Positions 1,502 through 62,811 of a DNA stretch of 64,000 nt are shown here, in pieces. Within the stretch, counting starts at the first letter, position 1. Each line of letters begins with the position of its first letter. The DNA is from an uncultured Thermoleophilia bacterium (GTDB lineage Bacteria > Actinomycetota > Thermoleophilia > UBA2241). The notes beneath the pieces are model-generated. The model had not been told where the DNA came from. It searched no databases and saw nothing but the letters and a program-made list of their open reading frames with translations. The position numbers and the translations under genes are program-made. Location of the stretch: contig CAVTKL010000009.1 of NCBI GenBank assembly GCA_963735345.1, positions 6,916 through 70,915 on the forward strand, written 5' to 3'.

Positions 1502-1523
1502 GCGCGAATCCGCCCTTTCCGAC

Positions 1524-2279
1524 CTAGATACCCAAGCCGCCGTCGACGGGAAGGACGACGCCGGTGATGAATCGGGCCTGCGACGACGCCAAGAAGACGA
1601 CCGCAGCCGCCACGTCGTCGGGCGTCCCGATGCGCCTCAGCGGCGTCGCCGTCACGATCGTGCTCCTCGTCTCCTCGGGCAGCGCTTGCGTCATGGGTGT
1701 GTCGATGTAGCCGGGGGCGATGGCGTTGACCCTGACTCCTCGCGAACCCAGCTCCTTGGCCAAGGACTTGGTCAGCCCGATGATGCCGGCTTTGGCGGCG
1801 GCGTAGTTGGCTTGACCGGCGTTCCCGCGGCGACCGACCACACTTGACAGATTGATGATACAGCCCGACCGGCGACGGAACATCCTGCGCGCCGCCGCCT
1901 TGCTGACTAGGAACGTGCCACGCAAGTGCGTGGCGATCACCGCGTCGAAGTCGCCGGCGTCCATCATCATGACGACGTTGTCTCGCGTGATGCCGGCGTT
2001 GTTGACGACCACGCCGAGCGGGCCCAGTTCTTCCTCGGCGCGCGCGATCATCGCGTTGACCTGCTCCTCGTTGGAGACGTCGCCCATCACGCAGACCGCC
2101 CTGCGACCCAGACGCTCGACCTCGCCGACGACAAGCGAGCAGGCCGCCTCGTCGGAGAAGTCGTTGATGGCGATATCGGCGCCGGCCGCGGCCAGTTCGA
2201 GTGCGATGGCGCGCCCGATGCCACGCCCTGCACCCGTGACCAGGGCGACAGTCCCGCTGAGATCCAGATCCATGCTCAC
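1524..2279 (-). CDS. fabG: 3-oxoacyl-ACP reductase (SDR)
   Basis: 251 aa. TGAGRGIGRAIA Rossmann motif and NAG...Y..AK SDR catalytic motifs. Overlaps the fabD stop by 4 nt. Confidence 0.9.
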   Translation of the reverse strand: MSMDLDLSGTVALVTGAGRGIGRAIALELAAAGADIAINDFSDEAACSLVVGEVERLGRRAVCVMGDVSNEEQVNAMIARAEEELGPLGVVVNNAGITRDNVVMMMDAGDFDAVIATHLRGTFLVSKAAARRMFRRRSGCIINLSSVVGRRGNAGQANYAAAKAGIIGLTKSLAKELGSRGVRVNAIAPGYIDTPMTQALPEETRSTIVTATPLRRIGTPDDVAAAVVFLASSQARFITGVVLPVDGGLGI

Positions 2280-3208
2280 AGAGCCTCCAGGTAGCGTCCG
2301 TCGTTTCGCAACGCCGCGAGGGTCTCCGCGTCGGAGACACGGGCGACGCTTGCCTCCGGCACGATGCGCCGCACGAGGCCGCCGAGCACGCCGCCCGGCC
2401 CGACCTCAAGAAAGGCATCATACCCTGCCGCGTGCAAAGCCTTCACGGCTTGGGTGAAACGCACCGGCGCGACGAGCTGCCGCTGCAGCAGTTCCGGGAA
2501 CGCCTCCATCTCGAACTGCAGACTGCTTACCGAGTAGAACCGCGGCTCAGGAAGGCGCCAATCGGAGCACTCCAGTTGGCGCCGCAGAGGCTCCAGCGCA
2601 GGCTCCATGAGCGGCGAATGAAAGGCCCCGCTCACGGCGAGCGGGATGACCCGGCGAGCGCCGGCGGCCTTGGCCTTGGCGCCCAGCTCGCTCAAGGCTG
2701 CCTGCGTGCCGCTCACGACGATCTGACCGGGGCTGTTGAAGTTGGCGGGCCAGACGCCCTCCGTCTCGGCACAGAGCCTCTCTGCCGTGGCATCGTCCAG
2801 CCCAATGAGCGCCATCATGCCGCCGGCGCTGGCTGCGGCGGCGGCTTGCATGGCCTCACCCCGCCGGCGCACGAGGCGAACGGCGTCGGCGAACGGCACG
2901 GCCGTCGTTGCCACCAGAGCCGAGTACTCGCCGAGACTGTGGCCGAAGGCCACCGTGAAGCGCAGGCCCTCGGCCCGCAGGATCCGGAAGATGCCCACCG
3001 ACGCAGCAAGCAACGCCGGCTGCGTGACATCGGTGCGCGCCAGGAGGTCCGAGGGACCGGCTGCGCAGAGTCGCTCGAGGTCGTAGCCGAGCACCGCCGA
3101 GGCTTCCTCGTATGTAGCGCGCATGACGGGCTCGTCCGCGCAGAGATCGCAGCCCATGCCCACCACCTGTGATCCCTGACCGGGAAACATCAGCGCGAGG
3201 TCCTTCAT
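2276..3208 (-). CDS. fabD: malonyl-CoA:ACP transacylase
   Basis: 310 aa. FPGQGSQ and GHSLGE active-site motifs. Confidence 0.9.
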   Translation of the reverse strand: MKDLALMFPGQGSQVVGMGCDLCADEPVMRATYEEASAVLGYDLERLCAAGPSDLLARTDVTQPALLAASVGIFRILRAEGLRFTVAFGHSLGEYSALVATTAVPFADAVRLVRRRGEAMQAAAAASAGGMMALIGLDDATAERLCAETEGVWPANFNSPGQIVVSGTQAALSELGAKAKAAGARRVIPLAVSGAFHSPLMEPALEPLRRQLECSDWRLPEPRFYSVSSLQFEMEAFPELLQRQLVAPVRFTQAVKALHAAGYDAFLEVGPGGVLGGLVRRIVPEASVARVSDAETLAALRNDGRYLEAL

Positions 3209-3217
3209 GAAGACGAC

Positions 3218-4219
3218 CTAGAGCTCCCACTCAGTGAGGCACGTGCCCCAGGTGAGACCGGCGCCGAAGCCCGCCATGAGAAGCCGGTCGCCCTTCTTGA
3301 GCCGACCGCAGGCACTGGCCTCACTGAGACAGATGGGGATCGACGCGCATGAGGTGTTGCCGTAGCGATCGAGATTGGCGAAGACCTGATCCTCCCTGAA
3401 CCCCAGACGACGCACCGCCGAGTCGATGATGCGGATGTTGGCCTGGTGGGGGACGAAGAGATCCACATCAGCCACGCCAAGCTCCGCGTCGCCGAGCACC
3501 CGTTCGCAGGACTCCGCCACGGCACGGGTCGCGAAGCGGAACACTTCGCTGCCGGTCATCTGCATGGTATGCGCGTGCTGTCGCACGGTCTCGTGGCTGG
3601 CCGGCATACGGGAGCCGCCGGCCGGGATACTGAGGAACGCGGCGCCACTGCCGTCGTTGCCGAGGTCGAAGTGGAACATACGGCCTTCGTCGGCGGCCTC
3701 GACCAGCACGGCCCCGGCGCCGTCGCCGAAGAGCACGCTGGTACTACGGTCCTCCCAATCCACCATCCGGCTGAGGACCTCGGCGCCGATCACGAGCACC
3801 CGCTCGTAGATGTTCGCGGAGACGAACGCCGCGGCGCTGGCGAGGCCGTACACGAACCCGGTGCATCCCGCCTGGACGTCGAACGCCCCGGCGCGCAGCG
3901 CGCCGATCTTGTCGGCCACGATCGACGCCGTGGCGGGCATGATGTGATCGGGCGATATCGTCGTCACGATCACTAGGTCCAGCGCCTGAGGATCCATGCC
4001 AACCGATTCGAGGCAGCGGCGAGCGGCGATCACGCCCAGATCGCTCGCCGCTTGATCGGGGCTCGCGATCCTGCGCTCGCGGATGCCCGTCCGCGACATG
4101 ATCCACTCGTCCGACGTCTCGAGGAACCCCGAGATCTCGTCGTTGGTGAGGATCTTCTCGGGGACGTACACGCCCAGCGCCGAGATCCTGGCGCCGCGGG
4201 CAAGACCGCGACGCCTCAC
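3218..4219 (-). CDS. fabH: 3-oxoacyl-ACP synthase III
   Basis: 333 aa. ISALGVYVPE start; Cys-His-Asn KAS III architecture (ACTGF, HQAN, GAGL motifs). Confidence 0.9.
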   Translation of the reverse strand: MRRRGLARGARISALGVYVPEKILTNDEISGFLETSDEWIMSRTGIRERRIASPDQAASDLGVIAARRCLESVGMDPQALDLVIVTTISPDHIMPATASIVADKIGALRAGAFDVQAGCTGFVYGLASAAAFVSANIYERVLVIGAEVLSRMVDWEDRSTSVLFGDGAGAVLVEAADEGRMFHFDLGNDGSGAAFLSIPAGGSRMPASHETVRQHAHTMQMTGSEVFRFATRAVAESCERVLGDAELGVADVDLFVPHQANIRIIDSAVRRLGFREDQVFANLDRYGNTSCASIPICLSEASACGRLKKGDRLLMAGFGAGLTWGTCLTEWEL

Positions 4220-4680
4220 AGCTTGGCCTCACCGGCAGCGATGGAATCGGCATCCACGATGGCGGACATCAGCTCACCGCGACAGACCAGCTGACCCTCG
4301 ACCTTGGCCACGACCCTGGCGCGACCGACCGGCCCGCGCGCGGCGATGATCTCCGCTTCGAGGTGCAGCGTGTCGCCTGGCTTCACGACACGCTTGAAGC
4401 GCACCTTGTCGATCCCGGCGAAGAGCCCGATCTTGCCCTCCGTCGATCCTGCGCTCGCCGCGGCCAAGGTGGCGGTCTGGGCGAGCGCCTCGACGATGAG
4501 CACGCCTGGCATCACGGGATTGCCGGGGAAGTGCCCGGCGAACCAGAAGTCGTCGTCGCGGAGCAGACGCGTGGCCACGCAGCGCGCCCCCGGCTCGAGC
4601 TCTATGACCTGGTCGACGAGCAGGAAGGGTGGGCGATGCGGGAGCAGCGCCATGATCTGATCGCGGTCGAGCTTCACCAA
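4216..4680 (-). CDS. fabZ: 3-hydroxyacyl-ACP dehydratase
   Basis: 154 aa. LPHRPPFLLVD and HFPGNPVMPGVLIVEALAQ hot-dog motifs. Confidence 0.9.
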   Translation of the reverse strand: MVKLDRDQIMALLPHRPPFLLVDQVIELEPGARCVATRLLRDDDFWFAGHFPGNPVMPGVLIVEALAQTATLAAASAGSTEGKIGLFAGIDKVRFKRVVKPGDTLHLEAEIIAARGPVGRARVVAKVEGQLVCRGELMSAIVDADSIAAGEAKL

Positions 4681-4694
4681 TGGGTCTCCCTCGC

Positions 4695-5123
4695 TCAGGA
4701 TGGTCTCAGCTCACGGGAGTGCCGCACGTGCCGGCGCTCGATCCCGATGAGCACGGCTGCGGCCGCGAGGCCCCAGCCGATCAGGTTTCTGACGAGCATC
4801 GAACGGCCGCCCGGCAAGGCCACGCGGCCCAGGAGGCCGTCGATCTCCCGGAGTCGCCCGTCGACTGCCCTCAGAATGGGCCGCGCAGCAGCATCCGGCT
4901 CACGCTCGACCGCCGCGATGACGCGCTGTGCGAACCCAGGCGGAGGGGCGAGCTCAATGCTACCCCATGCGGCGAGGGCGATGCGCATCGCGCTCGTCTC
5001 GGCCAACTCCGCGGCGCAGTCCTCGCAGGAACCGAGGTGACGCTCGAGCTCCGCACTTTCGAGATAGCCCAGCTCACCGTCCAGGTAACGGTCGGTGAGC
5101 GCCTGGACATAGCTGCATTCCAT
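4695..5123 (-). CDS. membrane-anchored zinc-binding anti-sigma factor (ZAS-like)
   Basis: 142 aa. N-terminal C..(25)..HxxxCxxC (HLGSCEDC) zinc motif and a C-terminal TM helix LIGWGLAAAAVLIGI. Its ATG overlaps the sigma stop (ATGA). Confidence 0.65.
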   Translation of the reverse strand: MECSYVQALTDRYLDGELGYLESAELERHLGSCEDCAAELAETSAMRIALAAWGSIELAPPPGFAQRVIAAVEREPDAAARPILRAVDGRLREIDGLLGRVALPGGRSMLVRNLIGWGLAAAAVLIGIERRHVRHSRELRPS

Positions 5124-28037: not shown

Positions 28038-29204
28038 ATGCCGACGCTGAGAGGATTCGCCGTGGGCGCTGTAGGCGGGGTATTGGGCGCAGCCTTCGTC
28101 CTGACCGTCCTGGTTCTGGTCTTCGACCTCGGTCAGAACACGAAGACCGTCGTGACCATCGCGCCATCCCCAGTGGCATACGCCTCCGGCGCCCAGGGCC
28201 TGTCGCCCGACCAGATCTACAAGAGCTTGTCGGGCGGCGTCGTCATGGTCCTTTCGAGCTTCGGCGATGAGGGAGTCGGCCCCTTCGGCGATGCACAGAC
28301 CGGACAAGCTCTGGGCACGGGGTTCGTGGTCGACGAGGACGGCTACATCCTCACGAACGCCCACGTCGTCAACGATCAGGGCCAGTCGGCGAGCTCGGTC
28401 ACGGTCGTGTTCCGCGAGAACGACGCCGAGACCACACGCGTCAAGGGAGAGCTCGTGGGTGTCGACGTGAGCAGTGACGTGGCCGTCATCAAGGTCGACC
28501 CAAAGGGCCTCGCCCTACGACCGCTGCCCCTGGGCGACTCCGGCAAGGTGATCGTCGGGGAGCCTGTCGTCGCCATCGGCAACCCCCTCGGGTACGACTT
28601 CTCGATCACCTCCGGGATCGTCTCGGCCACGGGCCGTAGCCTGCACGCCCCGAACGGCATGACGATCGCCAACGGGATCCAGACCGACGCGGCGATCAAC
28701 CTGGGCAACTCGGGGGGTCCGCTCATCGATGGCCGAGGGCGGGTGATCGGCATCAATGAACAGATCGCGTCGCAGTCAGGCGGAAGTCAGGGTCTCGGCT
28801 TCGCCGTCCCCATCAACACCGCCGTGCGCTCTCTGAACCAGCTCCGCGAGAACGGCAAGGTCGAGTACGCGTGGCTCGGCGTCACGGGGCAGACGCTGTC
28901 GAGCGACGTCGCCGCCATGTTCGGGATCGACACTTCAGGAGGCGTCCTTGTCGAGGAGGTTTCGCCGGGGAGTCCGGCGGCGGCGGCGGGCATCAGGGGC
29001 GGCGGCCACATCGTCTCGATCCAGGACCAGACCTTCACGCTCGGCGGCGACATCATCGTCAAGATCGATGCGACCCCGATCGCGAGCTTCGACGACCTCG
29101 TCGCCTACCTCTCCGGCAAACGGCCAGGCGACGAGGTCACGTTGATCCTCGATCGCGACGGCGAGCATCTCGAACTCACGGCCACACTCGCCGAGCGCCC
29201 GTGA
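28038..29204 (+). CDS. htrA: HtrA/DegP-family trypsin-like serine protease with PDZ domain
   Basis: Catalytic triad motifs TNAHVV ... D ... GNSGGPL, and a C-terminal PDZ domain. Confidence 0.9.
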   Translation: MPTLRGFAVGAVGGVLGAAFVLTVLVLVFDLGQNTKTVVTIAPSPVAYASGAQGLSPDQIYKSLSGGVVMVLSSFGDEGVGPFGDAQTGQALGTGFVVDEDGYILTNAHVVNDQGQSASSVTVVFRENDAETTRVKGELVGVDVSSDVAVIKVDPKGLALRPLPLGDSGKVIVGEPVVAIGNPLGYDFSITSGIVSATGRSLHAPNGMTIANGIQTDAAINLGNSGGPLIDGRGRVIGINEQIASQSGGSQGLGFAVPINTAVRSLNQLRENGKVEYAWLGVTGQTLSSDVAAMFGIDTSGGVLVEEVSPGSPAAAAGIRGGGHIVSIQDQTFTLGGDIIVKIDATPIASFDDLVAYLSGKRPGDEVTLILDRDGEHLELTATLAERP

Positions 29205-29248
29205 AGACGACTGGCCTCGCCGCCTGCGACGCCCTCTCCAGACTCGTC

Positions 29249-30322
29249 ATGGATGCGCCGGTACGTGCCTTGGCGGTCATCGGTCTCGTCAAGAACGCCG
29301 GCAAGACGACAGTGGTCAACGCACTCTTGGAGACCTGCGCCTGCGGGTTCGGCCTCACCTCTCTCGGCCTCGACGGTGAGCCTGTCGACCACGTCACGGG
29401 ACTCGCGAAGCCGCGCATTGCTCCACCGAGCGGGACGCTGGTGGCGACGACGCGCGGCTCCCTCGAGCGCTCCGGCTACACGATGGACATCGTGGAGGAG
29501 TTGCCCTTCCGCACCCCCCTTGGCCCCGTGGTCATAGGCAGGGCACATGGCCAAGGGCGGGTCGAGGTCAGCGGGCCGACCACGCTTGCCGAGGTGCGCG
29601 CCACCGTCGACCGATTGCACGCGCATGGCGCCGAGCGTGTCCTCGTGGACGGCGCCATCAATCGGCTCGGCAGCGCATCCCCCAGAGTCAGCGACGGGCT
29701 TCTCCTGGCCACCGGTGGCATGGTGGGCGATACGCTCGAGGACGTCGTCGAGAACACCGTCGCAGCACTCGATCATCTGTCGCTGCCGGAGGTATCGCCA
29801 CAGACGCGGGGAATGCTGGCTCCCTGCCTGGAAGATGACGCCCGCCTGGTGTCGTTCGACGCACAGGGACGGGCGACGCCCTTGACGCCTGCCACCGCCG
29901 TGGGTACCGGCGCGGCGGTCGCACGCGAGGCCGTGAGGCTCGCCGCGGTGACGCTCTTCGTGGGAGGCGCACTGACCGAGGGATTCCTCGAAGAGCTCCT
30001 CCGCGTGTCGCCCCCTCAGTCGCGCCTGCGGATCGTGGTGCGAGACGCCACGGTCCTCGTGGCCCCCGCGCGCAGCGTGCAGCGCTGTCAGCGCGGCGGT
30101 CTCCGCCTCGAGGTCCTCACACCACTGCGCCTGCTGGCTGTGACGACCAACCCGTTCCGCTCGCCCCATTCATATCCCAGTACGACCTTCTTCAAGGCGA
30201 TCGTCGACGCGCTCGGCGATCGCGTTCCCGTCTTCGATGTTGTGAGCGACCTCTCCTCATTGCAGGGCGACCCACGCCCGTCCCAAGGCAGCGGCACTCA
30301 CGAAAAGGGGTTGATGCAGTGA
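29249..30322 (+). CDS. uncharacterised P-loop protein preceding kamDE (possible aminomutase accessory/reactivase; function unknown)
   Basis: ATG 29249 (MDAPVRALAVIGLVKNAGKTTVVNALL carries a Walker A-like GKT motif). An alternative GTG at 29201 would overlap the htrA stop. Its 3' end overlaps the kamD start. Confidence 0.5.
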   Translation: MDAPVRALAVIGLVKNAGKTTVVNALLETCACGFGLTSLGLDGEPVDHVTGLAKPRIAPPSGTLVATTRGSLERSGYTMDIVEELPFRTPLGPVVIGRAHGQGRVEVSGPTTLAEVRATVDRLHAHGAERVLVDGAINRLGSASPRVSDGLLLATGGMVGDTLEDVVENTVAALDHLSLPEVSPQTRGMLAPCLEDDARLVSFDAQGRATPLTPATAVGTGAAVAREAVRLAAVTLFVGGALTEGFLEELLRVSPPQSRLRIVVRDATVLVAPARSVQRCQRGGLRLEVLTPLRLLAVTTNPFRSPHSYPSTTFFKAIVDALGDRVPVFDVVSDLSSLQGDPRPSQGSGTHEKGLMQ

Positions 30323-31932
30323 ACGACGCACTCTGTTTGAACGCGAATCTGACGGTCCGCGCTCGCGCGGCCGCGAGCGCCATCGCCGACGACATCCAGC
30401 GGCACATCGCGAAGCACACCACCGACGCCACCGAGCGCGCCACCCTGCGACTTCTCGGTGTCGCGGGCGTGAACGCGGTCGATGTGCCTCTGGTCAATAT
30501 CGTCGTCGAGCACGCACGGGAGCTGCTGCCCGCCGGCATCGTGCGGCCCTTCGTCGACCTCATGAACCAGACCGGGAGAAGCGCCCAGTCGGTCGCGGAG
30601 GGCGTAGCCGCCGGCGAGATAGCCGTCGCCGAGCCGCCGGCCAGGCGCCGTGCGGCGGCCGAGACCCGTGGCGAGGAACTCGCCGCCGAGGGCGTGGCGC
30701 GTATCGATGCGGTGCGGCGCCGGCGCAACGAACTGGTGGCCGAGATCGGCGAGCCTCTGAAGCCATATGTCTACGTCATCGTCGCGACCGGCGACATCGT
30801 CGAGGACGCAGCCCAAGCCAAGGCGGCCGCCCGCGCCGGGGCGGATGTCATCGCCGTCATCCGCACCACGGCGCAGAGCCTGCTGGACTATGTGCCGTAC
30901 GGCGAGACTCGAGAGGGTTTCGGCGGCACCTACGCCACCCAGGAGAACTTCCGTCTCATGCGCACGGCTCTCGACGAGGTCGGCGAGGAGGTGGGGCGCT
31001 ACATCCGCCTGTGCAACTATGCGAGTGGCCTCTGCATGCCCGAGATCGCCGTCATGGGCGCCCTGGAGCGACTCGACATGATGCTGAACGACTCCATGTA
31101 CGGCATCATCTTCCGCAACATCAACATGCAGCGGACCTTTGTCGACCAGTACCTCAGCAGGCTGATCAACGCACGCGCCGGCATCGTCATCAACACCGGC
31201 GAGGACAACTATCTAACGACCGCGGACGCCTTCGAGAAGGGCCACACGGTCGTCAGTTCGGACTTCATCAACGAGGCCTTCGCGCTGCGCGCCAACCTGG
31301 AGCCCTGGCAGATCGGGCTCGGGCACGCCTTCGAGATCGATCCGTCCAGACCCGATCAGGTCGTGTATCAGATCGCCGACGCACAGCTCGTCCGGCAACT
31401 CTTTCCGGGCTACCCGCTCAAGTACATGCCGCCCACCAAGTACATGCCGGGCGACATCTTCCAGGGTCACGTCATCGACGCCATGTTCAACTTCACCGGC
31501 ATCTTCACCAGGCAGGAGATCATGCTCCTCGGCATGCCGACCGAGGCGTTGCACACGCCGTTGCTGCAGGATCGCTACCTCAGCATCAGGAACGCCAAGT
31601 ACGTCTTTGAGGCGTGCCGCAGCCTCGCCGGCGAGATCTCCTTCAAGCCTGGGGGGATCATCGAACAGCGCGCCAACGACCTGCTCCAGAAGGCCACGGA
31701 GCAACTCGAGCACGTCCGCGAGATCGGCCTGTTCCAGGCGCTTGAGAGCGGCGAGTTCGCCGACGTCAGACGCGAGCCTTGTGGCGGACGCGGCTTCGAC
31801 GGTGTCTTCACGGTGAGCGACGACTACTTCAATCCGTTCTTCTCCGCCTTGCGCGATGGCCGCATGAGCGGAGCGCCCGCCGCGCCGGAGCTCCAGGGCG
31901 GACTCCACGCCGAGGCGGGGGGTACAGCATGA
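30319..31932 (+). CDS. kamD: lysine 5,6-aminomutase alpha subunit (D-lysine / L-beta-lysine)
   Basis: 537 aa. Recalled as matching the PLP-binding TIM-barrel alpha subunit of KamD/OraE-family B12 aminomutases. Immediately followed by the B12-binding beta subunit. Confidence 0.8.
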   Translation: MNDALCLNANLTVRARAAASAIADDIQRHIAKHTTDATERATLRLLGVAGVNAVDVPLVNIVVEHARELLPAGIVRPFVDLMNQTGRSAQSVAEGVAAGEIAVAEPPARRRAAAETRGEELAAEGVARIDAVRRRRNELVAEIGEPLKPYVYVIVATGDIVEDAAQAKAAARAGADVIAVIRTTAQSLLDYVPYGETREGFGGTYATQENFRLMRTALDEVGEEVGRYIRLCNYASGLCMPEIAVMGALERLDMMLNDSMYGIIFRNINMQRTFVDQYLSRLINARAGIVINTGEDNYLTTADAFEKGHTVVSSDFINEAFALRANLEPWQIGLGHAFEIDPSRPDQVVYQIADAQLVRQLFPGYPLKYMPPTKYMPGDIFQGHVIDAMFNFTGIFTRQEIMLLGMPTEALHTPLLQDRYLSIRNAKYVFEACRSLAGEISFKPGGIIEQRANDLLQKATEQLEHVREIGLFQALESGEFADVRREPCGGRGFDGVFTVSDDYFNPFFSALRDGRMSGAPAAPELQGGLHAEAGGTA

Positions 31933-32681
31933 ACGTCCGGCCCTACGGCGATACCCGGGACGACGGCATGATGCAGTTCTCGTTCACGCTTCCTATCCCC
32001 TATTCCGTCAAGGCGCCCGACGTCGGCAAGCGCTTCCTCGAGGACATGGGCTTCCACACCGTCTCAGTGGCGGAGTGCACCTCGATCGACCCCAGGTACA
32101 CCTTCTACGTAGCGTACGGCCGTACGAACGCCACCATCGACCCCGATGAGGTGGAGGGCGACTACCTCGAGATGGAGGCGATGGACTACTACGCAGTCAA
32201 CCGCCTCATCGAGGAGAGACTCGGACGCAAGTTGGTGGTCGTGGGCGCGGCTATCGAGAGCGACGCCCATACCGTCGGCATCGACGCCATCATGAACATG
32301 AAGGGCTTCGCAGGGCACTACGGGCTCGAACGCTACCCGCAACTCGACGCCTCGAACCTTGGTTCGCAAGTGCCGAGCGAACAGCTTCTGAAGTACGCCC
32401 TGAGCGTAGGCGCGGACGCCATCCTCGTCTCGCAGATCGTCACGCAGAAGAGCATCCACGCGCAAAACTTGACGAAGCTGATCGAATTACTTGAAGCTGA
32501 GCGCGTACGCGAGCGCTTCGTACTGGTCGTCGGAGGGCCCCGTATCAGCAACGCCTTCGCCAAGGAGCTCGGGTACGACGCCGGATTCGGCCCCCGCACG
32601 ACCCCGCTGGAGGTGGCAGCGTTCCTTGCCCAGGAGGTCGTGAGGCGGCACGCAGCGACGGAGGGAGGCAAGCATGCCTGA
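31929..32681 (+). CDS. kamE: lysine 5,6-aminomutase beta subunit (B12-binding)
   Basis: Start at the internal Met (MNVRPYGD), forming an ATGA overlap with kamD. DxHxxG cobalamin motif (ESDAHTVGIDAI). Confidence 0.8.
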   Translation: MNVRPYGDTRDDGMMQFSFTLPIPYSVKAPDVGKRFLEDMGFHTVSVAECTSIDPRYTFYVAYGRTNATIDPDEVEGDYLEMEAMDYYAVNRLIEERLGRKLVVVGAAIESDAHTVGIDAIMNMKGFAGHYGLERYPQLDASNLGSQVPSEQLLKYALSVGADAILVSQIVTQKSIHAQNLTKLIELLEAERVRERFVLVVGGPRISNAFAKELGYDAGFGPRTTPLEVAAFLAQEVVRRHAATEGGKHA

Positions 32682-33870
32682 CACCGACATCGTGATCCTT
32701 GCGGCAGTGCGCACCGCACACGGCCGCTTCCAGGGCGGCTTCTCCGGCACATCAGCCGTGGATCTCGCGGCCGTCGTGATGAAGGAGGTGCTGCTCCGGG
32801 CAGGGGTGGACGGAGAGCAGCTTTCTGAGGTCGTCTTCGGAAACGTCATCCAGGCTGGCCAGGGCCAGAACCCGGCACGGCAAGCCGCGCTCAAGGCTGG
32901 CATCCCCGCGCAGATCCCGGCGATGACGGTCAATCGGGTCTGCGTGTCGAGCAGCTCCGCTTTGGCGATCGCCGCCAACGCGATCGCTGCCGGCGCGGGG
33001 GACTTGTTCCTCGTCGGGGGCACCGAGAACATGACGCGTGCTCCCTGGCTGATGCAGGACGGCCGCAGCGGGTACCGCATGGGACTGCCCACAGAGCCGA
33101 TCTACGATGCCATGGTGTGGGACGGACTCTGGTGTGCCGTGGGGGATTACCACATGGGCGTGACTGCGGAGAACCTGTGCTCGCAGTTCGACATCACGCG
33201 CGAAGAACAGGACGATGCCGCGTACGAGAGTCACGTCAGAGCCATCGCCGCCATCGACAGCGGCCGCTTCGCCGACGAGATCACCCCGGTCGTCGTCCCC
33301 CAGCGCAAGGGAGAGCCCCTTGTCTTGGCTACTGATGAGTGCCCGCGCCGCGATGCGAGTCTCGAGTCCTTGGCGAGACTCAAGCCCTTCTTCCTGGAAG
33401 GCGGCGTGGTGACGCCGGGCAACTCGTCGGCGATCGCCGACGGCGCGAGCGCCTTGGTCGTGGCCTCGCGCCGCAGAGCGGCGGAGCTCGGCCTCCGCCC
33501 CATCGCCGAGCTGCTGAGTCACACGACAGTCGCCGTCGCCCCCGAGATCATGGGAGTAGGTGCGGCGAGCGCGGCGCAGGGCGCCCTCGAGAAGGCCGGG
33601 CTGAGGCCCGGCGATGTGGATCTCGCCGAGTTCAACGAGGCCTTTGCTTGCGTCTCGCTCCTGGCCACGAGAGAGACCACGATCGACCCCGCCATCGTCA
33701 ACGTCAACGGCGGGGCGATCGCGCTCGGACATCCGCTGGGCAGTACCGGGACCCGGATGCTCGTCTCGCTCATCCATGAGCTGCGCCGCCGCGGCGGAGG
33801 GACAGGGCTCACCGGAGCGTGCGTGGGCGGCGGCCAGGGCGCCGGGTCAGTCATCAGAACGATCGACTAG
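32674..33870 (+). CDS. acetyl-CoA C-acetyltransferase (thiolase II)
   Basis: 398 aa. Thiolase signatures NRVCVSS ... NVNGGAIALGHPLGSTG ... GGGQG. Confidence 0.9.
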   Translation: MPDTDIVILAAVRTAHGRFQGGFSGTSAVDLAAVVMKEVLLRAGVDGEQLSEVVFGNVIQAGQGQNPARQAALKAGIPAQIPAMTVNRVCVSSSSALAIAANAIAAGAGDLFLVGGTENMTRAPWLMQDGRSGYRMGLPTEPIYDAMVWDGLWCAVGDYHMGVTAENLCSQFDITREEQDDAAYESHVRAIAAIDSGRFADEITPVVVPQRKGEPLVLATDECPRRDASLESLARLKPFFLEGGVVTPGNSSAIADGASALVVASRRRAAELGLRPIAELLSHTTVAVAPEIMGVGAASAAQGALEKAGLRPGDVDLAEFNEAFACVSLLATRETTIDPAIVNVNGGAIALGHPLGSTGTRMLVSLIHELRRRGGGTGLTGACVGGGQGAGSVIRTID

Positions 33871-33879
33871 GGAGGCACA

Positions 33880-34962
33880 ATGATGGAAGGCAACAAATTC
33901 GGGGCGCACAGGGTCCTTGAGCCAAAGGGCGTGCTGCCGCAGCCGGCGCTGCGCGTCGACAACACTATGGTCATCTACGACAACGAGATCCTCATCGACG
34001 TCGATACGCTCAACGTGGACGCGGCAAGCTTCACGCAGATCGAGGCGGCTGAAGGCGGCGACGTGCGCAAGATGGCACGCCGCAGCTTGGGCATCATCGC
34101 CGAGCGCGGCAAGCATCACAATCCGGACACGGGCTCGGGAGGCATGCTTCTCGGCACCGTGAGGGAGATCGGGCCAAGACTCAAGGACCGCGATCTGAAG
34201 ATCGGTGACCGCATCGCCACGCTCGTCTCGCTGTCGCTCACGCCCCTCAAGGTCGACGAGGTGCTCGCGATCAACAAGGACACCTGCCAGATCAAGGTCA
34301 AAGGGCAGGCGATCCTCTTCGAGAGCGGGATCTACGCGAAGATGCCCGACGATCTCGACGAGGCCCTGGCGCTCGCCATACTCGATGTCGCGGGAGCGCC
34401 CGCGCAGGCGGCTAAACTGTGCCGGCCTGGAGACACGGTCTTCATCATCGGGGCGGGCGGCAAGAGCGGCCTACTCTGCGCCTACGAGGCCCGCAATCGC
34501 GTAGGCGTCACCGGCAGGGTCATCGGCCTCGTCCACGGGGATGCAGGAAAGGCGCGCCTCGAGAGAACGGGATTCTGCGACGACATCATCCAGGGGAGCG
34601 CGACAGACCAGCTCTTCGTGTACGAGGCTGTCAGTGCCCTCACCGCGGGCGAGATGGCCGATCTGACGATCAACTGCGTCGACGTCCCCAATACTGAGAT
34701 GGCCTCCGTCCTGGCGACCAAGGACTCCGGCACGGTCTACTTCTTCAGCATGGCGACCAGCTTCACGGCGGCGGCGCTGGGCGCAGAGGGCATCGGCGCT
34801 GACACGACGATGCTCATCGGTAACGGCTACACGAAGCATCATGCCGAGATCTCTCTGGCCGACGTGCGACAGAGCCCCATCCTTATGGAGATCTTCCAGG
34901 AGACCTACGCGACTGGAGCCGGGCTTTCTGAACCGGTAGGCCTGAAGGCTGACGAGGTCTAG
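33880..34962 (+). CDS. kdd: L-erythro-3,5-diaminohexanoate dehydrogenase
   Basis: 360 aa. Rossmann motif IIGAGGKSG. Overall similarity to Kdd of the lysine fermentation pathway, and adjacency to kamDE. Confidence 0.75.
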   Translation: MMEGNKFGAHRVLEPKGVLPQPALRVDNTMVIYDNEILIDVDTLNVDAASFTQIEAAEGGDVRKMARRSLGIIAERGKHHNPDTGSGGMLLGTVREIGPRLKDRDLKIGDRIATLVSLSLTPLKVDEVLAINKDTCQIKVKGQAILFESGIYAKMPDDLDEALALAILDVAGAPAQAAKLCRPGDTVFIIGAGGKSGLLCAYEARNRVGVTGRVIGLVHGDAGKARLERTGFCDDIIQGSATDQLFVYEAVSALTAGEMADLTINCVDVPNTEMASVLATKDSGTVYFFSMATSFTAAALGAEGIGADTTMLIGNGYTKHHAEISLADVRQSPILMEIFQETYATGAGLSEPVGLKADEV

Positions 34963-35442: not shown

Positions 35443-36606
35443 TCAGGTCCCTCTGGCTGGGCGCTGCAGAGCAAGGCCAGCCACGACCTCCACCGCTGCC
35501 CGCGCCGCGAGTTGGCTCAGGTGGCCCTGGAGGTCGTAGCGCGGCGCGAGACAGCAGATGTCAAACCCTGCGATCCGCCCGCGACTCAGGATGCGCAGCG
35601 CGCGCAGGAGCTCGCGCGCGCTCAGCCCGGCAGGATCGGGGTACTTCTGCCCCCCGTGGGCGGGATCGACAACGTCGATGTCCAACGACACGTAGATCGC
35701 CTCGGTGCCGGCGCCGGCTGCCTCCAGCGCCTCCTGAGCCACCGCGGCGATGCCGAGTTCGTCCACGTCGGCCATGGTGAAGTAGCGGATCCCGAGCTCG
35801 TCGGCGACGTGTTTGTCGCTGAGCGACTCCCGGCCTCCGCGAATGCCGATCTGCACGAAGTTGTCGGGCTCGACGACCCCCAACTCGAAGGCGCGCGCCC
35901 ATTGTGAGCCCGCCCAGTACTTCGGCTCCCGGCTCAGATCGAAGTGCGAGTCCAAGACGACGATGCCCAGCTTGCCGGTCAGCGTCCCCGCAAGCACCTG
36001 GAGGACGGGAATGGGCACGGAGTGGTCGCCGCCGAACACGATGGGGAGGGCACCTGCGGCGAGGATGTCGGCGACCTTCTCGTGAGCACGCAGGAAGGTC
36101 TCCTCCACGTCCCCCGGCACGACGGCGACGTCGCCGTAGTCCATCAAGTGGAGGTAGTCCAGGAGCACGAGATCGCGGCCGGCCTCGGGAAGCAGTCCGC
36201 GGCCGTGACGCAGTGAGTAGAAGACCGAGTGGCGACGGATGGCATCGGGCCCTTCGTCGGCGCCGGAGCGGTAGTAGATGCTGCCCTCCGGCGCCGGCGC
36301 GGCCAAGGGCGGCGCGTACGTGACCGGATCCAGCAGCTTGACGCCTTCGTAAGGAATACCCAGGAAGACAACGTCCGCGCCGCTCAGGTCTCCGGCGCGC
36401 GTCGCCAGTGGCGCCTCCATGAACGTGGGCACATCCCCACGCAAGATAGGGGCCATCGAGCGCTCGGGACGCCCGGCTGAGGCCCTTTCCTCGGCCCGGT
36501 TCCAGGCGGCCTTCACGTCCTTGGCGTCCATGCTTCCTCCTTGGAGGTCAGGCCAGTCTGACTTGCCCGACGCCTTCGAATGCCGTATAAGTATTGTCCC
36601 TCGCAA
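35443..36606 (-). CDS. ureohydrolase (agmatinase/arginase/guanidino-acid hydrolase family)
   Basis: Mn-binding motifs GGDHS, DSHFD and SLDIDVVDPA. TTG start. Confidence 0.85.
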   Translation of the reverse strand: MRGTILIRHSKASGKSDWPDLQGGSMDAKDVKAAWNRAEERASAGRPERSMAPILRGDVPTFMEAPLATRAGDLSGADVVFLGIPYEGVKLLDPVTYAPPLAAPAPEGSIYYRSGADEGPDAIRRHSVFYSLRHGRGLLPEAGRDLVLLDYLHLMDYGDVAVVPGDVEETFLRAHEKVADILAAGALPIVFGGDHSVPIPVLQVLAGTLTGKLGIVVLDSHFDLSREPKYWAGSQWARAFELGVVEPDNFVQIGIRGGRESLSDKHVADELGIRYFTMADVDELGIAAVAQEALEAAGAGTEAIYVSLDIDVVDPAHGGQKYPDPAGLSARELLRALRILSRGRIAGFDICCLAPRYDLQGHLSQLAARAAVEVVAGLALQRPARGT

Positions 36607-36619: not shown

Positions 36620-36695
36620 GGGGCATTAGCTCAGCTGGGAGAGCGCCTGGATCGCACCCAGGAGGTCAGCGGTTCGATTCCGCTATGCTCCACCA
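36620..36695 (+). tRNA. tRNA-Ala (anticodon CGC)
   Basis: GGGGCATTAGCTCAGCTGGGAGAGCGCCTGGATCGCACCCAGGAGGTCAGCGGTTCGATTCCGCTATGCTCCACCA. G3:U70 Ala identity pair, cloverleaf with anticodon loop AUCGCAC, and an encoded CCA end. Confidence 0.9.
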
Positions 36696-37063
36696 CTTCC
36701 CTCATTCTCGGTCCCATCGTCGATGGTGACGTCGGTGAGCTGTACCATGGGCGCATCTGGATCGAGGATCACCGTCACCGACGAGCAGTTCGGGCAGCGC
36801 TCATGTCGCGCGTGCACTGTGAACTCCTCGCTGCATTCCATGCACCGCGCCACGATCGGCCGGTGGTCGAAATGCAGTCTGGCCCCCGCGAAGAAGGCGT
36901 CATCACCGGTCAGCATCTCGAAGTACATCTCGATGGAGTCCTGGGAGAAGTCCGCGGCAGGCGTCATAGCGAGAAAGAGGTCGGTGACGCGCGCGGCCCC
37001 ACTAGCCAGCGCCGCTTCGCGGGCGTGGTCGATGATCCCCTGCGTGATGCCCAACTCGTGCAT
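36686..37063 (-). CDS. hypA: hydrogenase/urease nickel-insertion metallochaperone HypA
   Basis: Start MHELGITQGIIDH (the conserved MHE N-terminus). CxxC...CxxC zinc ribbon (CMEC ... CPNC). The C-terminal tail overlaps tRNA-Ala on the opposite strand. Confidence 0.75.
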
Positions 37064-37182
37064 GGCGAGCCTCCGTGAGAGCCCATTGTACTTCCGCATG
37101 GCCGAAGGCCGGCAGGACGTCGCGCCCCGAAGGCATGCGGCGGTCCGGCGATCGGCAGCGGCCGGCGCGGCCACGCCGCGCC

Positions 37183-56573: not shown

Positions 56574-57341
56574 GCTCGCCTTGACGCGAGGGGTCAAGGC
56601 TTCCAGAGAGCCCCAGACGACCAGCCTGTGGCTGGCGCTGTACGGCGGCGTGCAGGTGGTGAGCACCAGCGCGTAGCCGCGATCGAGGAGGACGCTGACG
56701 TCGGTCGGCCTCACCACGGTCTTCTTGACCACGGAGTAGCGGAACCGTGCGTAGGGCGTGTCGACCAGGATCTTGTCGCCGGGCTTGAGCTCATCGAGTT
56801 TGGCGAACGGCGCTCCGTAGGTGGTCCGATGGCCGGCGACGGCGAAGGGCTCCCCGGCCCCCGGCAAGGGCGTTACAGCGTAGTGCACGGGTCCGTTGCG
56901 CAGCAGGGCGCGATCGCCGTCGGGATCGATCGCCGTCGGACCGCTCACTCCCTGCTGGATCAGACGGTCGAGGGAGATGCGCGGGATCTTCAGGCGGCCG
57001 ATCGCGTCGCCTCTTTCGAGGCCATGGCCATAGGCCACCGCCAGGCGGCGCACGATCTCGCCTTCAGGGACCGTCCGGGTATCGCCCCCCCCGGCGTGCG
57101 CCGTGACACCCGCGAAGCGGCTGCTCGAGTCCTGATAGGCGGCATCAAGCCGACCCTGCTGAACCTGGGCGTAGCCGGCCGACCAGAACGGATATGCGAG
57201 GATGAGGCCGCCGGCGATGAGCAGGATGTCGCCGAGCCGACGCATCTGTCTGCCGGGCGACGCGCTGCGCGCCGGGTCTCCGGCGGGCGCTGATGGCGTC
57301 GCCTGTCCGCTCGTTGCCGACCGTCGCCGTCGAGGCATCAT
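56559..57341 (-). CDS. class E sortase (transpeptidase)
   Basis: N-terminal TM anchor. Catalytic TLxTC motif LVLTTCTP, plus His and Arg. Start uncertain: Met at 57341 or 57245. Confidence 0.7.
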   Translation of the reverse strand: MMPRRRRSATSGQATPSAPAGDPARSASPGRQMRRLGDILLIAGGLILAYPFWSAGYAQVQQGRLDAAYQDSSSRFAGVTAHAGGGDTRTVPEGEIVRRLAVAYGHGLERGDAIGRLKIPRISLDRLIQQGVSGPTAIDPDGDRALLRNGPVHYAVTPLPGAGEPFAVAGHRTTYGAPFAKLDELKPGDKILVDTPYARFRYSVVKKTVVRPTDVSVLLDRGYALVLTTCTPPYSASHRLVVWGSLEALTPRVKASSITR

Positions 57342-57430
57342 CCTGCCATGGTACTCAAGCCGGTCGACGACCGCCAACTTGCCGCGGCGCGAGGGTGTGC
57401 GCGCGGGCGGCGTGCTGTACTGTGGCGGCC

Positions 57431-58811
57431 ATGACGCTGACACGGACTCACGCCATGGGCACGGCTGCACGCCTGGCCGTGCTTGCTCCCGAGGAGATGC
57501 AACGGCTGGACGCCGCCGCCCTCGAGGTGCTGGAGGAGGTCGGCGTCGCCATTCCTTCGGAGCGCGCCCTCTCGGCCCTGGCCGGCGCCGGGGCGGACAT
57601 CGACGGCGACGCCGTCAGGTTCCCGCCCGAACTGGTCCGGCGGCTCGTGGCGCTGGCGCCCTCGCGACTCACGCTGGGGGCGAGAGCGGCCGCCCCCCTC
57701 GTGACCGGCGAGCGGGCGTTGGTGACCACGGACGGCTGCTGCGTCGAGATCTACGATCTGGAGAGCGGCGTGAAGCGGCGCACCGTCGCGCGCGATGTGG
57801 CGCAGATCGCCCACGTCGTCGACGGCATGCCGGAGATCGACTTCTGCTGGCCCTCGGTCAGCGCGCACGATCGACCTGTCGAGAGGCGCGGGCTTCATGA
57901 GCTGTATCTCGCTCTCGCGAACACGGGCAAACACGTGCAGACCGTCACCGTCGTCGAGCCGGGGCTCGCGGAGGTCGCTGTGCGCATGGCGCGAGTCGTG
58001 GCGGGAAGCGATGCTCGTCTACGTCACGGGTCTCCTGTCAGCGCTCTTCTCGGGACGGTGACGCCTCTGGGCAGCGACCCCGGGACCCTCGAGGCCGGCC
58101 TGGTCTTCGCCGGGGCTGGTGTCCCCGTCGGCTTCGTGACCATGCCGATGGGCGGGTCCACGACCCCCATCACCATGGCGGGCTCCCTGGTGGTCGGTAT
58201 CGCCGAGGCGCTCAGCAGTGTCTGCGTGATCCAGGCTGTCTTCCCCGGCGCGCCCGTCTTCATCTGTTTCATCCCCAGCCTCATGGACCTCAAGACCGGC
58301 GACTTCACCGGCGGCGCCCCTGAGGATACGATCATGGGCGCCGCCGTGGCGGACGTGGGCGTCTACTACGGACTGCCCACGCAGTGCGGCATCAACTCCT
58401 CGGGCGCCAAGCTGCCGGGCTGGCAGTCCGCTCTCGACGACGCAACGACGACCTTTCTGTCGGTGGCCTGCGGCGTCGACATGCTCGCCGGCGTCGGCAT
58501 GGTCTCGGGGGGTCGCATCTTCAGCTACGAGGAGATGGCCCTGGCCGTCGAGACTCTCACGCAGGCGCGCGCTGTCGCCGCGGGCATCGATCTCAGCGCT
58601 CTCGACGGACCGTCGGCTGTGGTGCATGAAGCGCCTGCGGATCTTCCGTCCCTCACGTCGGGGACAGTCCCCAGTTCTTTCGGTGGACCGCGCACGCGAG
58701 CGCGTACGGGCGATCCTCGCGGGGCATCGCCCGCCGGCCCTTGCGCCGTCCGTCGACACTGAGCTGCGCCGGCTCGTGGGCAGCGAGCGGGGCGCCTCCT
58801 TCGCGGACTAG
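57431..58811 (+). pseudogene. MttB-superfamily (trimethylamine-type / non-pyrrolysine quaternary-amine) corrinoid methyltransferase, disrupted by a +1 frameshift near 58620-58640
   Basis: N-terminus MTLTRTHAMGTAARLAVLAPEEMQRLDAAALEVLEEVGV fits the family. The body runs in frame 57431 up to about 58620. The family C-terminus (...DRARERVRAILAGHRPPALAPSVDTELRRLV) is encoded in the +1 frame (track ORF 58626-58811). The total span is not a multiple of 3. Confidence 0.55.
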
Positions 58812-59011
58812 CGCCGCCCAGCGACGGGACAACAGCCTGCGCGTCGGGGCATTTGTGCTTGTCTTTTGTGGCTCGTGCTGTATAAAAGGGCATCGGATCC
58901 CTCCGCGTGAGCGCCGTCGGGGCACTTGTTCGCTCACGCCGGGGCAGGCTCGGGCGCGTCTTGTCGCGCCTCTGGGGCATGCCGGTGCCAATCAGCCCGA
59001 AAGGATGGAGT

Positions 59012-59914
59012 ATGAGAAAGAGCAGGACCTATATCGTGGCGGCGGCACTCGTCGTCGCGATCCTGGCGGTCATGGCGATCGCCGTCGGCTGCGGGGGGAG
59101 CGACACCCCAGCGGCGGACGAGAGCAGCCCGGCTGCGGGCGGGCTGGATGGCAGCGCCGCCCAGCGTGCCGAGGAGATTCTCGGGCACGCGCCGACAGGC
59201 AAGGCCAAGGAGGTCATCGACAAGGGTACGATGACGGTCAACAACGACCCCAAGTATCCGCCGCAGAGTTCCATCGACGAGGCGACGGGTGACCTCGTGG
59301 GCTTCGACGTGGATGTTGCCAAGAAGGTCGGCGAGCTTCTCGGTCTCCAGGTCGAGTTCACTGACCATCCCTTCGATACGATCCTCACCGATGTCAACCA
59401 GGACCGCTACGACGTGTCGATCGGCTCCATGACGATCACCAAGGAGCGCCTGGCGAAGGTGGACATGACGGAACCGTATTACTTCACCCCAGCGGGTATC
59501 GTGGTGAAGGAAGGCGGGACGCAGATCACCGGCGTGGAGGATCTCGCCGGCAAGAAGGTCGGCGTCGGCGCCGGCACCACGTACCTCACGTGGTTGCAGG
59601 ACAACAGCGACGCGAAGGTCGTGATCTACGATACCGATGCGTCCATGTTCCCGGACTTGGCCAAGGGGAGCCGCATCGACTTCGGGTTCACCGCGGTCCC
59701 CACTTCGATCGAAGCGATCAGGCAGGGCCAGCCGTTCGAGCTCTCCGGAGATCCGCTTTACTACGAGGATCTGGCGTTCGCGAGCAAGAAGGGTGAGGCC
59801 GACTGGCTCGCTCTCCTCAACTACACCGTGAAGACCATGCACGACGACGGATCGCTCACCGACATGAGCGAGGTCTGGTATGCGGGCGTCGATCTCACGC
59901 GGAAGGCGCAGTAG
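59012..59914 (+). CDS. ABC transporter substrate-binding lipoprotein, polar amino-acid (family 3) type
   Basis: ATG 59012 after AAGGATGGAG. Lipobox AVGCGGS. PBPb fold motifs (DVSIGSMTITKERLAKVDMTEPYY). Confidence 0.85.
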   Translation: MRKSRTYIVAAALVVAILAVMAIAVGCGGSDTPAADESSPAAGGLDGSAAQRAEEILGHAPTGKAKEVIDKGTMTVNNDPKYPPQSSIDEATGDLVGFDVDVAKKVGELLGLQVEFTDHPFDTILTDVNQDRYDVSIGSMTITKERLAKVDMTEPYYFTPAGIVVKEGGTQITGVEDLAGKKVGVGAGTTYLTWLQDNSDAKVVIYDTDASMFPDLAKGSRIDFGFTAVPTSIEAIRQGQPFELSGDPLYYEDLAFASKKGEADWLALLNYTVKTMHDDGSLTDMSEVWYAGVDLTRKAQ

Positions 59915-60024
59915 AAGATCCGCAGCTGGTCCGTCCGCGTACTCCGCGGACCCGCATTCTGCTTGACCCCGGCGGGGGTCTGAGTATACTCAGGCCCCCG
60001 CCGTGTCACCTCGACGAGAGGTCA

Positions 60025-61263
60025 GTGCCCGTGCAGACGAGACGCTGGTGCACACGAGTCACCCTTCTTGCGGTCGCCGTCGCCCTTGTGGCGGTCCTCT
60101 TTGCGTCTTCTGCCGCCGCGGCCTCGCCGTCGCCGTCGCCGTCGCCTGCGCCGCAGGGCACGCCCGAGGTCACCGGCACCATCCCCAACCCGAAGGATCC
60201 CAAGGGCCAGAAGGGCTGGACAGGCCGGTCGGTCATCGTCAACTACAAGCCCAACGGGGCTGAGGTAGACGCCGCCAGCTGCAAGCTCTTCGTCGACGGC
60301 ACGGAGCAGGAACTCAGCCAGCCGCCCAGACAACTCCCCACCGGCTCGGCCGTGACGCAGTCGATCGAGTTTCGTTGGCTGGAGGCATATCCCGAGGGCG
60401 ACTACAAGTTCCGCGTGGTGCTCGTGACGACCGCCGGCGAGGAGGTCGAGTATACGTGGAACTTCGGCTCGACGGGCGAGGCGGGTTCCGGGGCGCTGAT
60501 CGACTTCAAGGTGATGCGCGACTGGTTCTGGTTCATCGCCCGAGGCGCGGTCGTCACGGTGGAGTTGACGATCATCTCGATCGTGTTGGCCTCCGTGTTC
60601 GCTCTTTTCGGGTCCCTGGGGAGACTCTCCAAGAAGATGAGCTTCAAGCAGGCGTGGGATCGTTACCAGAGCTGGGGCTACATGGCCCGGATGGTCATCG
60701 GCCGCATCCCGTACTGGGTGGCGACGTTCTACACCTCCCTCTTCCGCGGGACCCCGCTGCTCCTGCAGATCGTCGCCATCTACTCGGTCATCCCGGAGGT
60801 GATCGACAGGTTCGGACTGCCGCAGTCGTACGCTCCGTCGGCGTTCTGGTGCGGCGTCGCCGCCCTCTCGCTCAACTACGGCGCCTACCTCAGCGAGGTC
60901 TTCCGCGCCGGGATCCAGGCAGTGCCCAAGGGCCAGCACGAGGCCGCCTGGGCGATCGGCCTGAGCGGATGGCAGACGCAGCGGCGTGTCGTCCTGCCGC
61001 AGGCGTTCAAGATCGTGTTGCCGGCGGTCGGCAACGACTTCATCGCGCTCATCAAGGACACCTCGCTGGTGTCGGTCATCACCATCCAGGAACTGCTGCG
61101 CCGCTCGCAGCTTGCAGGGGCCGCCACCTTCAGTTTCTTCAGTACGCTGCTTGTGGCGGCCGCCTTCTACTGGGCCCTGACGATCTTCTTCAGTTTCTGG
61201 CAGGCCAAGCTCGAGACGCGCATGGCGCGCGACAAGGCGAGAGAGAAAGAAAAGGCGCGCTGA
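60025..61263 (+). CDS. amino-acid ABC transporter permease (HisM/GlnP type) carrying an unusual ~170-aa N-terminal secreted domain
   Basis: C-terminal 5-TM permease core with EAA-like loop ([21 protein letters not shown]). Preceded by a signal peptide, a PSPSPSPAP linker and a ~130-aa domain of unknown fold ([22 protein letters not shown]...[21 protein letters not shown]). Confidence 0.8.
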
Positions 61264-61264
61264 C

Positions 61265-62707: not shown

Positions 62708-62811
62708 CAGTCCTGCCGCGCACGGCAGGACTGGCTCGCGGCTGGTACGTAAGGGTAGTAGAGTCGGTGGCCGTGGTGCGGGGACCGCAGGAGAGCGAAG
62801 CAGAAGGTGGC

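Follow-up and report, generated by a model that had tools for sequence, protein, structure and literature searches.

Lysine 5,6-aminomutase (KamDE), a B12 enzyme of lysine fermentation, inactivates itself with substrate when studied as the recombinant protein (PMC12429584), and an auxiliary protein of ~80 kDa, E2, together with ATP, activates it and is needed in cell extracts (PMC3958899). We found no gene assigned to the E2 preparation in the searchable literature and no open study of E2 genes. Which protein, then, might keep the mutase active? A locus from an uncultured Thermoleophilia bacterium (UBA2241) raises this question, as a gene for a P-loop protein, kamB, stands directly in front of the mutase genes kamD and kamE. 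We analyzed a stretch of 64,000 nt around it (the window; contig CAVTKL010000009.1 of GCA_963735345.1, positions 6,916-70,915). Positions 29201-34962 of its plus strand are a genuine five-gene operon, kamB-kamD-kamE-thiolase-kdd, for the breakdown of beta-lysine. The best explanation of the locus as a whole, to which we give a probability of about 70%, is a catabolic operon in which KamB serves as a helper of KamDE, with the other steps of the pathway encoded elsewhere.

Genes in the window were chosen as open reading frames (ORFs) supported by their GC content at third codon positions (GC3) and were then searched against Pfam and NCBIfam profiles; overall GC content is 63-70% throughout. Five packed plus-strand genes had been proposed in the initial annotation, made from the letters alone, and all five exceed the curated NCBIfam cut-offs (Table 1). 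KamD carries the aminomutase alpha TIM barrel of Pfam, and KamE the OAM_dimer and B12-binding domains. Against solved structures, KamD scores 621 bits (PDB 8t0v_A) and 615 bits (1xrs_A) with the alpha chains of lysine 5,6-aminomutase, aligning along its entire length, versus 122 bits with ornithine aminomutase. Likewise, the OraE model reaches 147 bits (second score 108 bits) where its cut-off is 800. We had considered whether KamDE could be an ornithine aminomutase, an identity that, with other aminomutases, the initial annotation had named as fatal to its reading; the NCBIfam and PDB scores (775 versus 147 and 621 versus 122 bits) rule this out, and the assignment to lysine 5,6-aminomutase stands. 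KamE aligns to 8t0v_C with 273 bits and retains DAHTVG, an instance of the cobalamin-ligand motif DxHxxG, and the pyridoxal phosphate (PLP) lysine of IMNMKG, both aligned to the same residues of 8t0v_C. We take the histidine of DxHxxG and the lysine of NMKG to be the cobalamin and PLP ligand residues, as in the 1xrs structure.

The last two genes were also named correctly at the outset. Kdd matches PDB 7dl3, a solved 3,5-diaminohexanoate dehydrogenase, over its full length (384 bits, residues 3-344), and the thiolase lies well above its family cut-off. The latter matches solved acetoacetyl-CoA (coenzyme A) thiolases with ~400 bits (401), its catalytic Cys/His/Cys stretches align with theirs, and by sequence it would pass for an ordinary acetoacetyl-CoA thiolase. 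Throughout the operon, the reading frames are intact, as are the catalytic motifs.

We read the junctions between the genes directly off the sequence. The htrA stop overlaps the kamB start in a GTGA (29201-29204), the kamB stop overlaps the kamD start in another (30319-30322), kamD and kamE share an ATGA (31929-31932), and kamE and the thiolase gene overlap by 8 nt (32674-32681); a 9-nt spacer holding GGGAGG separates the thiolase gene from kdd. The start/stop overlaps indicate translational coupling. Thus, the ATGA and 8-nt overlaps reported initially hold for kamD/kamE and kamE/thiolase, whereas the kamB/kamD junction is a GTGA. The same annotation had correctly seen the P-loop gene overlap the kamD start but had begun it at 29249, as a protein of 360 aa. 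That ATG would give 357 aa; the GTG at 29201, giving 373 aa, is better supported, because a homologue with 97% identity (P0001) has this same length and because the longer form regains an N-terminal segment seen in homologues. No terminator-like site was found on the plus strand between 25.6 and 36 kb, from the two-component genes through kdd, and the promoter/terminator scan gave nothing beyond the shuffled expectation. Because of the GTGA shared by htrA and kamB, transcription in this genome may run on into the module from the upstream genes, which encode the response regulator, the histidine kinase and HtrA. Scanned against Rfam, the entire window has one tRNA as its sole match and no riboswitch for cobalamin or lysine.

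The leading gene had been left without a family. This remains so for Pfam, where KamB finds no family even at E <= 10, and for the PDB, which holds no sequence relative, but not for NCBIfam: KamB matches the equivalog NF052386, "lysine 5,6-aminomutase reactivase subunit KamB", over profile positions 1-326/326 (E = 9.8e-79). The GKT P-loop noted earlier is there, reading GLVKNAGKTT. The family comprises 1731 clusters (50% identity, E <= 0.001) among 1.8 billion representatives, with members mostly of ~340-350 aa that are 30-45% identical to the window KamB. Invariant across it are the Walker A motif G-x-x-K-N-x-G-K-T, including its Lys and Thr, a stretch S-x-G-x-D-G-E-x-x-D, a K-P pair, and the Walker-B-like D-G-A-x-x-R with its Asp. 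A few over-long members (P0195, P0203, P0130) might have been fusions linking KamB to a partner, and we rejected them as such, as they look like frameshifted or mis-called high-GC ORFs.

An AlphaFold2 model of KamB has a mean predicted local distance difference test score of 91.8 and a predicted template modelling score of 0.89. Its structural matches are weak, with Z no higher than 9.4 and no close solved homologue. On this model, KamB is predicted to be a SIMIBI-class, dethiobiotin-synthetase-like P-loop nucleoside triphosphatase (NTPase) with an extra C-terminal domain of ~140 residues. It has the Walker A loop, the Walker-B aspartate and the fold of that class, and its Walker A spacing, read by eye from the alignment, is the G-x5-GKT of the dethiobiotin-synthetase type. 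MeaB/MMAA and UreG belong to the same P-loop class; the Pfam and NCBIfam models of the G3E family (ArgK/MeaB) gave no match to KamB.

We retrieved, with the KamB alignment, the 80 species-representative loci most similar to the window KamB, and counted linkage in the 52 that extend 4 kb or more from kamB in both directions. kamD lies within 3.5 kb of kamB in 48 of the 52, in bacteria and archaea and in several gene orders. KamC adjoins in 19 loci, and kamD is present without KamC in 30 of the 52; as loci were ranked by similarity to the window KamB, this KamC-less share is probably overestimated for the family as a whole. The qualitative result stands: KamB is a near-constant companion of KamDE, and KamC is optional. 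Pairwise distances between KamB proteins correlate with those of KamD and KamE (r = 0.84-0.90, with shared phylogeny contributing), which fits inheritance of the three as a unit. Identity within the clade of the window is 63% for KamB, 82% for KamD and 79% for KamE, suggesting that KamB evolves faster than the mutase subunits.

The arrangement differs by lineage, as seen by tblastn over the 80 loci with proteins verified in the Clostridium cadaveris cluster. We checked this cluster (L060) gene by gene; it reads kal-kce-kdd-kamA-kamB-kamC-kamD-kamE, and its KamC, a MutS2-like ATPase of 495 aa (NF052383, 578.7 bits), follows kamB. The Fusobacterium cluster has been drawn with genes marked "HP" and "mutS", matching kamB-kamC (PMC3149608). 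This canonical order, with KamC present, is that of Firmicutes, Fusobacteria and Kosmotogaceae. KamC is absent from the clade of the window (Thermoleophilia-labelled metagenome-assembled genomes, MAGs, with KamB 58-66% identical), where the order is kamB-kamD-kamE-thl-kdd, from Gaiellales and a related actinomycete (kamB-kamD-kamE-kal-kce), Desulfobacterales (kamD-kamE-(kal)-kce-kamB-kdd), Syntrophomonadaceae (kamB-kamD-kamE), Solirubrobacterales (kamD-kamE-kamB only), and Wansuia, a Promethearchaeota MAG and another archaeon (kdd-kamA-kamB-kamD-kamE). The two-subunit arrangement, with KamC beside kamB, was not found at the locus under study.

Three further observations came from the same set. 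In 17 Solirubrobacterales loci, the three-gene module encodes a KamD ~50% identical to reference KamDs, and kdd, kamA, kce and kal are not within 10 kb. The Promethearchaeota MAG (L032, 3276-13331) and an uncultured archaeon (L069) carry kce, kdd, kamA, kamB, kamD and kamE without kamC, by gene content a putative near-complete lysine-fermentation cluster in archaea. Lastly, two loci (L048 and L074) hold kamB-kamC pairs, and the flanks retrieved around them (10 kb each way for L048) have no kamDE, so both accessory genes can occur apart from the mutase.

Collectively, we propose a model in which KamDE, using adenosylcobalamin and PLP, would turn beta-lysine into 3,5-diaminohexanoate by a shift of the terminal amino group, Kdd would oxidatively deaminate this to 5-amino-3-oxohexanoate, and the thiolase would cleave acetoacetyl-CoA arising later in the pathway into two acetyl-CoA. 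The chemistry is that of lysine fermentation, in which beta-lysine is converted through these same two intermediates and acetoacetyl-CoA thiolysis is a recognised later step (PMC3149608). KamB would be the dedicated, nucleotide-dependent helper of KamDE: by hydrolysing ATP or GTP, it would open the inactivated mutase, and damaged cobalamin would be swapped for fresh adenosylcobalamin. In this lineage it would do so without an adjacent KamC, with which it is paired in Clostridia and Fusobacteria. That KamB is a dedicated accessory factor of KamDE seems to us very probable, and the reactivase or chaperone role guessed initially agrees with both the curated family name and the kamDE adjacency. 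That repair, and not cofactor loading, is its main job we favour by a slim measure. The support is contextual and structural, a nucleotide-binding protein translationally coupled to a self-inactivating B12 enzyme, and repair, which the NCBIfam name implies, is the best-supported mechanism. We advance only tentatively, and with some doubt, a stronger proposal: that lysine 5,6-aminomutase depends for its repair or chaperoning on KamB, which would be essential and sufficient by itself, and not on KamC.

How does this arrangement compare with known systems? The canonical cluster of Clostridia and Fusobacteria has orthologous kamB, kamD, kamE and kdd, above equivalog cut-offs, and likewise places kamB upstream of the mutase genes. 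Here, however, there is no kamC between kamB and kamD, kamA, kce and kal are not within the 64 kb, kamE and kdd are parted by a thiolase gene, and identity between the KamB proteins is only ~35%. E2 of Clostridium sticklandii, studied in the 1970s, has the role that we propose for KamB, a nucleotide-dependent auxiliary that keeps the mutase active (PMC3958899). Its ~80 kDa, however, differ from the ~40 kDa of KamB alone and the roughly 95 kDa of KamB with KamC, and only KamB is present here. Unlike MeaB/MMAA, the chaperone of methylmalonyl-CoA mutase, to which it has no sequence similarity, KamB has the G-x5-GKT loop and the additional C-terminal domain. The reactivases of diol dehydratase, glycerol dehydratase and ethanolamine ammonia-lyase (DdrAB, GdrAB and EutA) are Hsp70/actin-like (ASKHA) ATPases. 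They share with KamB the proposed ATP-driven exchange of damaged cobalamin on a self-inactivating enzyme, a likeness that is functional only, as KamB is a P-loop NTPase. Finally, in Candidatus Cloacimonas acidaminovorans an acetoacetyl-CoA thiolase gene also stands beside lysine-pathway genes and the pathway is spread over more than one locus, but there the thiolase gene adjoins kat and the cluster has a mutS-family (KamC-like) gene, whereas here the thiolase gene lies between kamE and kdd and no mutS-family gene is found (PMC3149608).

Several observations weigh against our reading. The 64 kb yielded no KamA, Kce or Kal, and none turned up within 10 kb of kamB in 21 loci of the clade; KamC was found neither in the window nor in these 21 loci. 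The window was searched with NCBIfam on all GC3-supported ORFs, with tblastn using proteins verified in the C. cadaveris cluster as queries, and with profile hidden Markov models (HMMs) that were made from the retrieved loci and applied to all six-frame ORFs of 50 aa or longer; the loci were covered for KamC by NCBIfam, tblastn and a KamC profile HMM. The initial annotation had kamA, kce and kal absent within 10 kb, which we can extend to the entire window. A search seeded with the actinobacterial (Gaiellales) Kce of locus L062 had Gaiellales as its top matches and none labelled as the clade, with further matches from mixed phyla at ~57% identity. The pathway is thus complete only by presumption, with the steps of KamA, Kce, Kal or Kat and a CoA transferase placed at other sites of the genome; a pathway split over several loci is common, as sister lineages keep kal-kce but not kdd beside kamDE. 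The structural matches of KamB tell its fold class, not its function, and we found no experiment on KamB or KamC in the searchable open literature, so the name "reactivase" rests on curation and gene context. KamB without KamC may also be insufficient, or have another job such as cofactor loading.

This last thought has the most to recommend it among the alternatives, although we still regard it as unlikely. KamB would then be a cofactor-delivery or adenosylation factor that loads or makes adenosylcobalamin on apo-KamDE, by analogy with the G-protein chaperones that gate B12 loading onto methylmalonyl-CoA mutase, and repair would be left to KamC where present. Old E2 preparations had adenosylcobalamin synthetase activity and passed label from ATP to the enzyme (PMC3958899), the P-loop class of KamB is that of MeaB/MMAA and UreG, and a near-universal KamB beside a lineage-restricted ATPase KamC fits a basic loading role. 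Another alternative concerns the missing Kce. If the CoA ester of 5-amino-3-oxohexanoate were cleaved by the operon thiolase to acetyl-CoA and 3-aminobutyryl-CoA, then the pathway could run independently of Kce, and in its favour the thiolase gene overlaps kamE and stands ahead of kdd, a position kept throughout the clade and found only there; sister actinobacterial lineages (L036, L062) have kal-kce at the corresponding place instead. Yet the enzyme is an unremarkable acetoacetyl-CoA thiolase homologue, the canonical pathway already includes acetoacetyl-CoA thiolysis, and the operon has no CoA transferase or ligase, so we hold this variant to be improbable.

The remaining two alternatives are far less probable than these. 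If fermentation genes of Firmicutes had recently been imported horizontally, cut short as they arrived and perhaps without function, this would account for the local incompleteness of the pathway, which is classically known from low-GC anaerobes; the initial annotation had hinted at such an origin and called lysine fermentation unusual for a high-GC lineage. But the GC3 of the five genes (0.81-0.875) is like that of their neighbours (0.80-0.91), and none of their frames or catalytic motifs is broken. Wherever a clade locus reaches far enough to reveal the gene order (within L001-L020 and on the contig of P0006), that order is kept. The operon is syntenic across the Thermoleophilia clade: in relatives with a 58-88% identical KamB, drawn from several metagenomes and MAGs, it keeps the same neighbours (parB-parA-rsmG and the genes for the radical SAM protein, response regulator and histidine kinase). 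In a neighbour-joining tree of KamD, the clade stands beside the Gaiellales type, then Syntrophomonadaceae and Desulfobacterales, and is separate from the group of KamC-bearing Firmicutes and Fusobacteria; its companions are actinobacterial KamC-less sequences. GC3, synteny and the tree thus point to an old resident of this actinobacterial class, and we consider a recent import very improbable. Nor is the operon unusual for this lineage. Least probable of all is a P-loop protein without any tie to the aminomutase, such as a central-metabolism kinase whose gene happens to stand upstream; the initial annotation had listed such a case as grounds for abandoning its reading. KamB has no Pfam domain or solved homologue and hence no direct functional assignment from sequence, but the gene neighbourhood contradicts this explanation: the kamB stop overlaps the kamD start, the adjacency recurs across lineages in several gene orders, and KamB distances track those of KamD and KamE, a correlation to which shared phylogeny adds. 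We therefore retain the catabolic operon with KamB as the KamDE helper.

Table 1. Features of the window (positions in the 64,000-nt stretch; bit scores against family cut-offs where given).
Feature	Position	Strand	Details
kamB, P-loop NTPase, presumed accessory/reactivating factor of lysine 5,6-aminomutase	29201 (GTG)-30322	+	373 aa; NF052386, 264.7 bits (cut-off 210)
kamD, lysine 5,6-aminomutase alpha	30319-31932	+	GTG start; NF052384, 775 bits (cut-off 600); PF09043, E = 5.5e-234
kamE, lysine 5,6-aminomutase beta	31929-32681	+	NF052385, 341 bits (cut-off 280); PF16554 and PF02310
thiolase, acetyl-CoA C-acetyltransferase type	32674-33870	+	TIGR01930, 433.6 bits (cut-off 240.55); Thiolase_N and Thiolase_C
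kdd, L-erythro-3,5-diaminohexanoate dehydrogenase	33880-34962	+	NF052381, 254.5 bits (cut-off 200)
htrA-like serine protease	28038-29204	+	Trypsin_2 and PDZ; TIGR02037, 305 bits; context, outside the pathway
rsmG-parA-parB	23083-20540	-	upstream of the operon
arginase/agmatinase-family gene	35443-36606	-	below all NCBIfam cut-offs
tRNA	36620-36692	+	Rfam
hypA-like nickel metallochaperone	36683-37174	-	
gyrA, gyrB, recF, dnaN, dnaA	42007-51838	-	rsmG-parA-parB ~20 kb away
MttB-superfamily gene	57221-58762	+	~260 bits (cut-off 525)
amino-acid ABC transporter	58886-62233		
MttB-superfamily gene	62689-63999	+	~260 bits (cut-off 525); runs off the window end
fabZ, fabH, fabD, fabG, fabF	257-4710	-	fatty-acid synthesis operon; left window end

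The window is an origin-proximal part of the chromosome. Directly upstream of kamB stand an AmmeMemoRadiSam radical SAM gene and, ahead of htrA, genes for a response regulator and a histidine kinase of WalRK-like type; downstream of the operon come the arginase-family gene, the tRNA, hypA, a cation diffusion facilitator transporter, trpS and the gyrA to dnaA genes. The cumulative GC skew has its minimum near 40-42 kb, ~10 kb from dnaA, and this minimum may reflect coding-strand composition instead of the origin. In relatives (compare L001-L004 and the contig of P0006), one of them with a 77%-identical KamB, a regulator with PAS_6 and HTH_22 domains (YheO-like) lies between htrA and kamB and overlaps the kamB start. 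Neither the window nor its 88%-identity relative (L085) has this gene, so that the kamB start overlaps the end of htrA directly. A dedicated regulator seems to have been lost recently, and control of the operon may have passed to the upstream two-component system.

The arginase-family gene stands beside a lone hypA-like gene, a pair also kept in the contig of P0006. As the long hypA ORF overlaps the tRNA by ~10 nt, its start is probably further downstream. Some guanidine hydrolases of the arginase family are nickel-dependent and have HypA/HypB-like helpers, and the arginase-family gene may therefore be one of these. Towards the right end, the two MttB-superfamily genes flank the amino-acid ATP-binding cassette (ABC) transporter; they resemble [trimethylamine-corrinoid protein] methyltransferase, at scores far under its cut-off, and are probably non-pyrrolysine quaternary-amine methyltransferases, representing more corrinoid-dependent metabolism in the same organism. 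The fatty-acid synthesis operon at the left end is ordinary.

As every gene of the operon belongs to a curated family, its annotation is itself ordinary; we see a known system in a KamC-less form, which overturns nothing. The departures from the described system are the lack of KamC, the embedded thiolase gene, and an inherited, origin-proximal operon in uncultured Thermoleophilia. Lysine 5,6-aminomutase is an attractive biocatalyst for beta- and other shifted amino acids, limited by the self-inactivation of KamDE. A 2025 specialist paper still treats this as an unsolved obstacle and mentions no reactivase (PMC12429584), although biochemical work revealed the ATP-dependent helper E2 as early as the 1970s (PMC3958899). 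Many lineages, this one included, have no adjacent KamC, which leaves a simple three-protein system of KamB and KamDE and suggests KamB as a gene to co-express for the stabilisation of the mutase. If KamB proves self-sufficient, it would be a third structural type of B12-enzyme helper, a SIMIBI NTPase akin to dethiobiotin synthetase and bearing a new C-terminal domain, distinct from the G3E GTPases and the Hsp70-like reactivases, and the KamC-less actinobacterial operon would be a minimal natural system. For the organisms themselves, genes of beta-lysine catabolism are a stable inherited feature of uncultured actinobacteria of the class Thermoleophilia.

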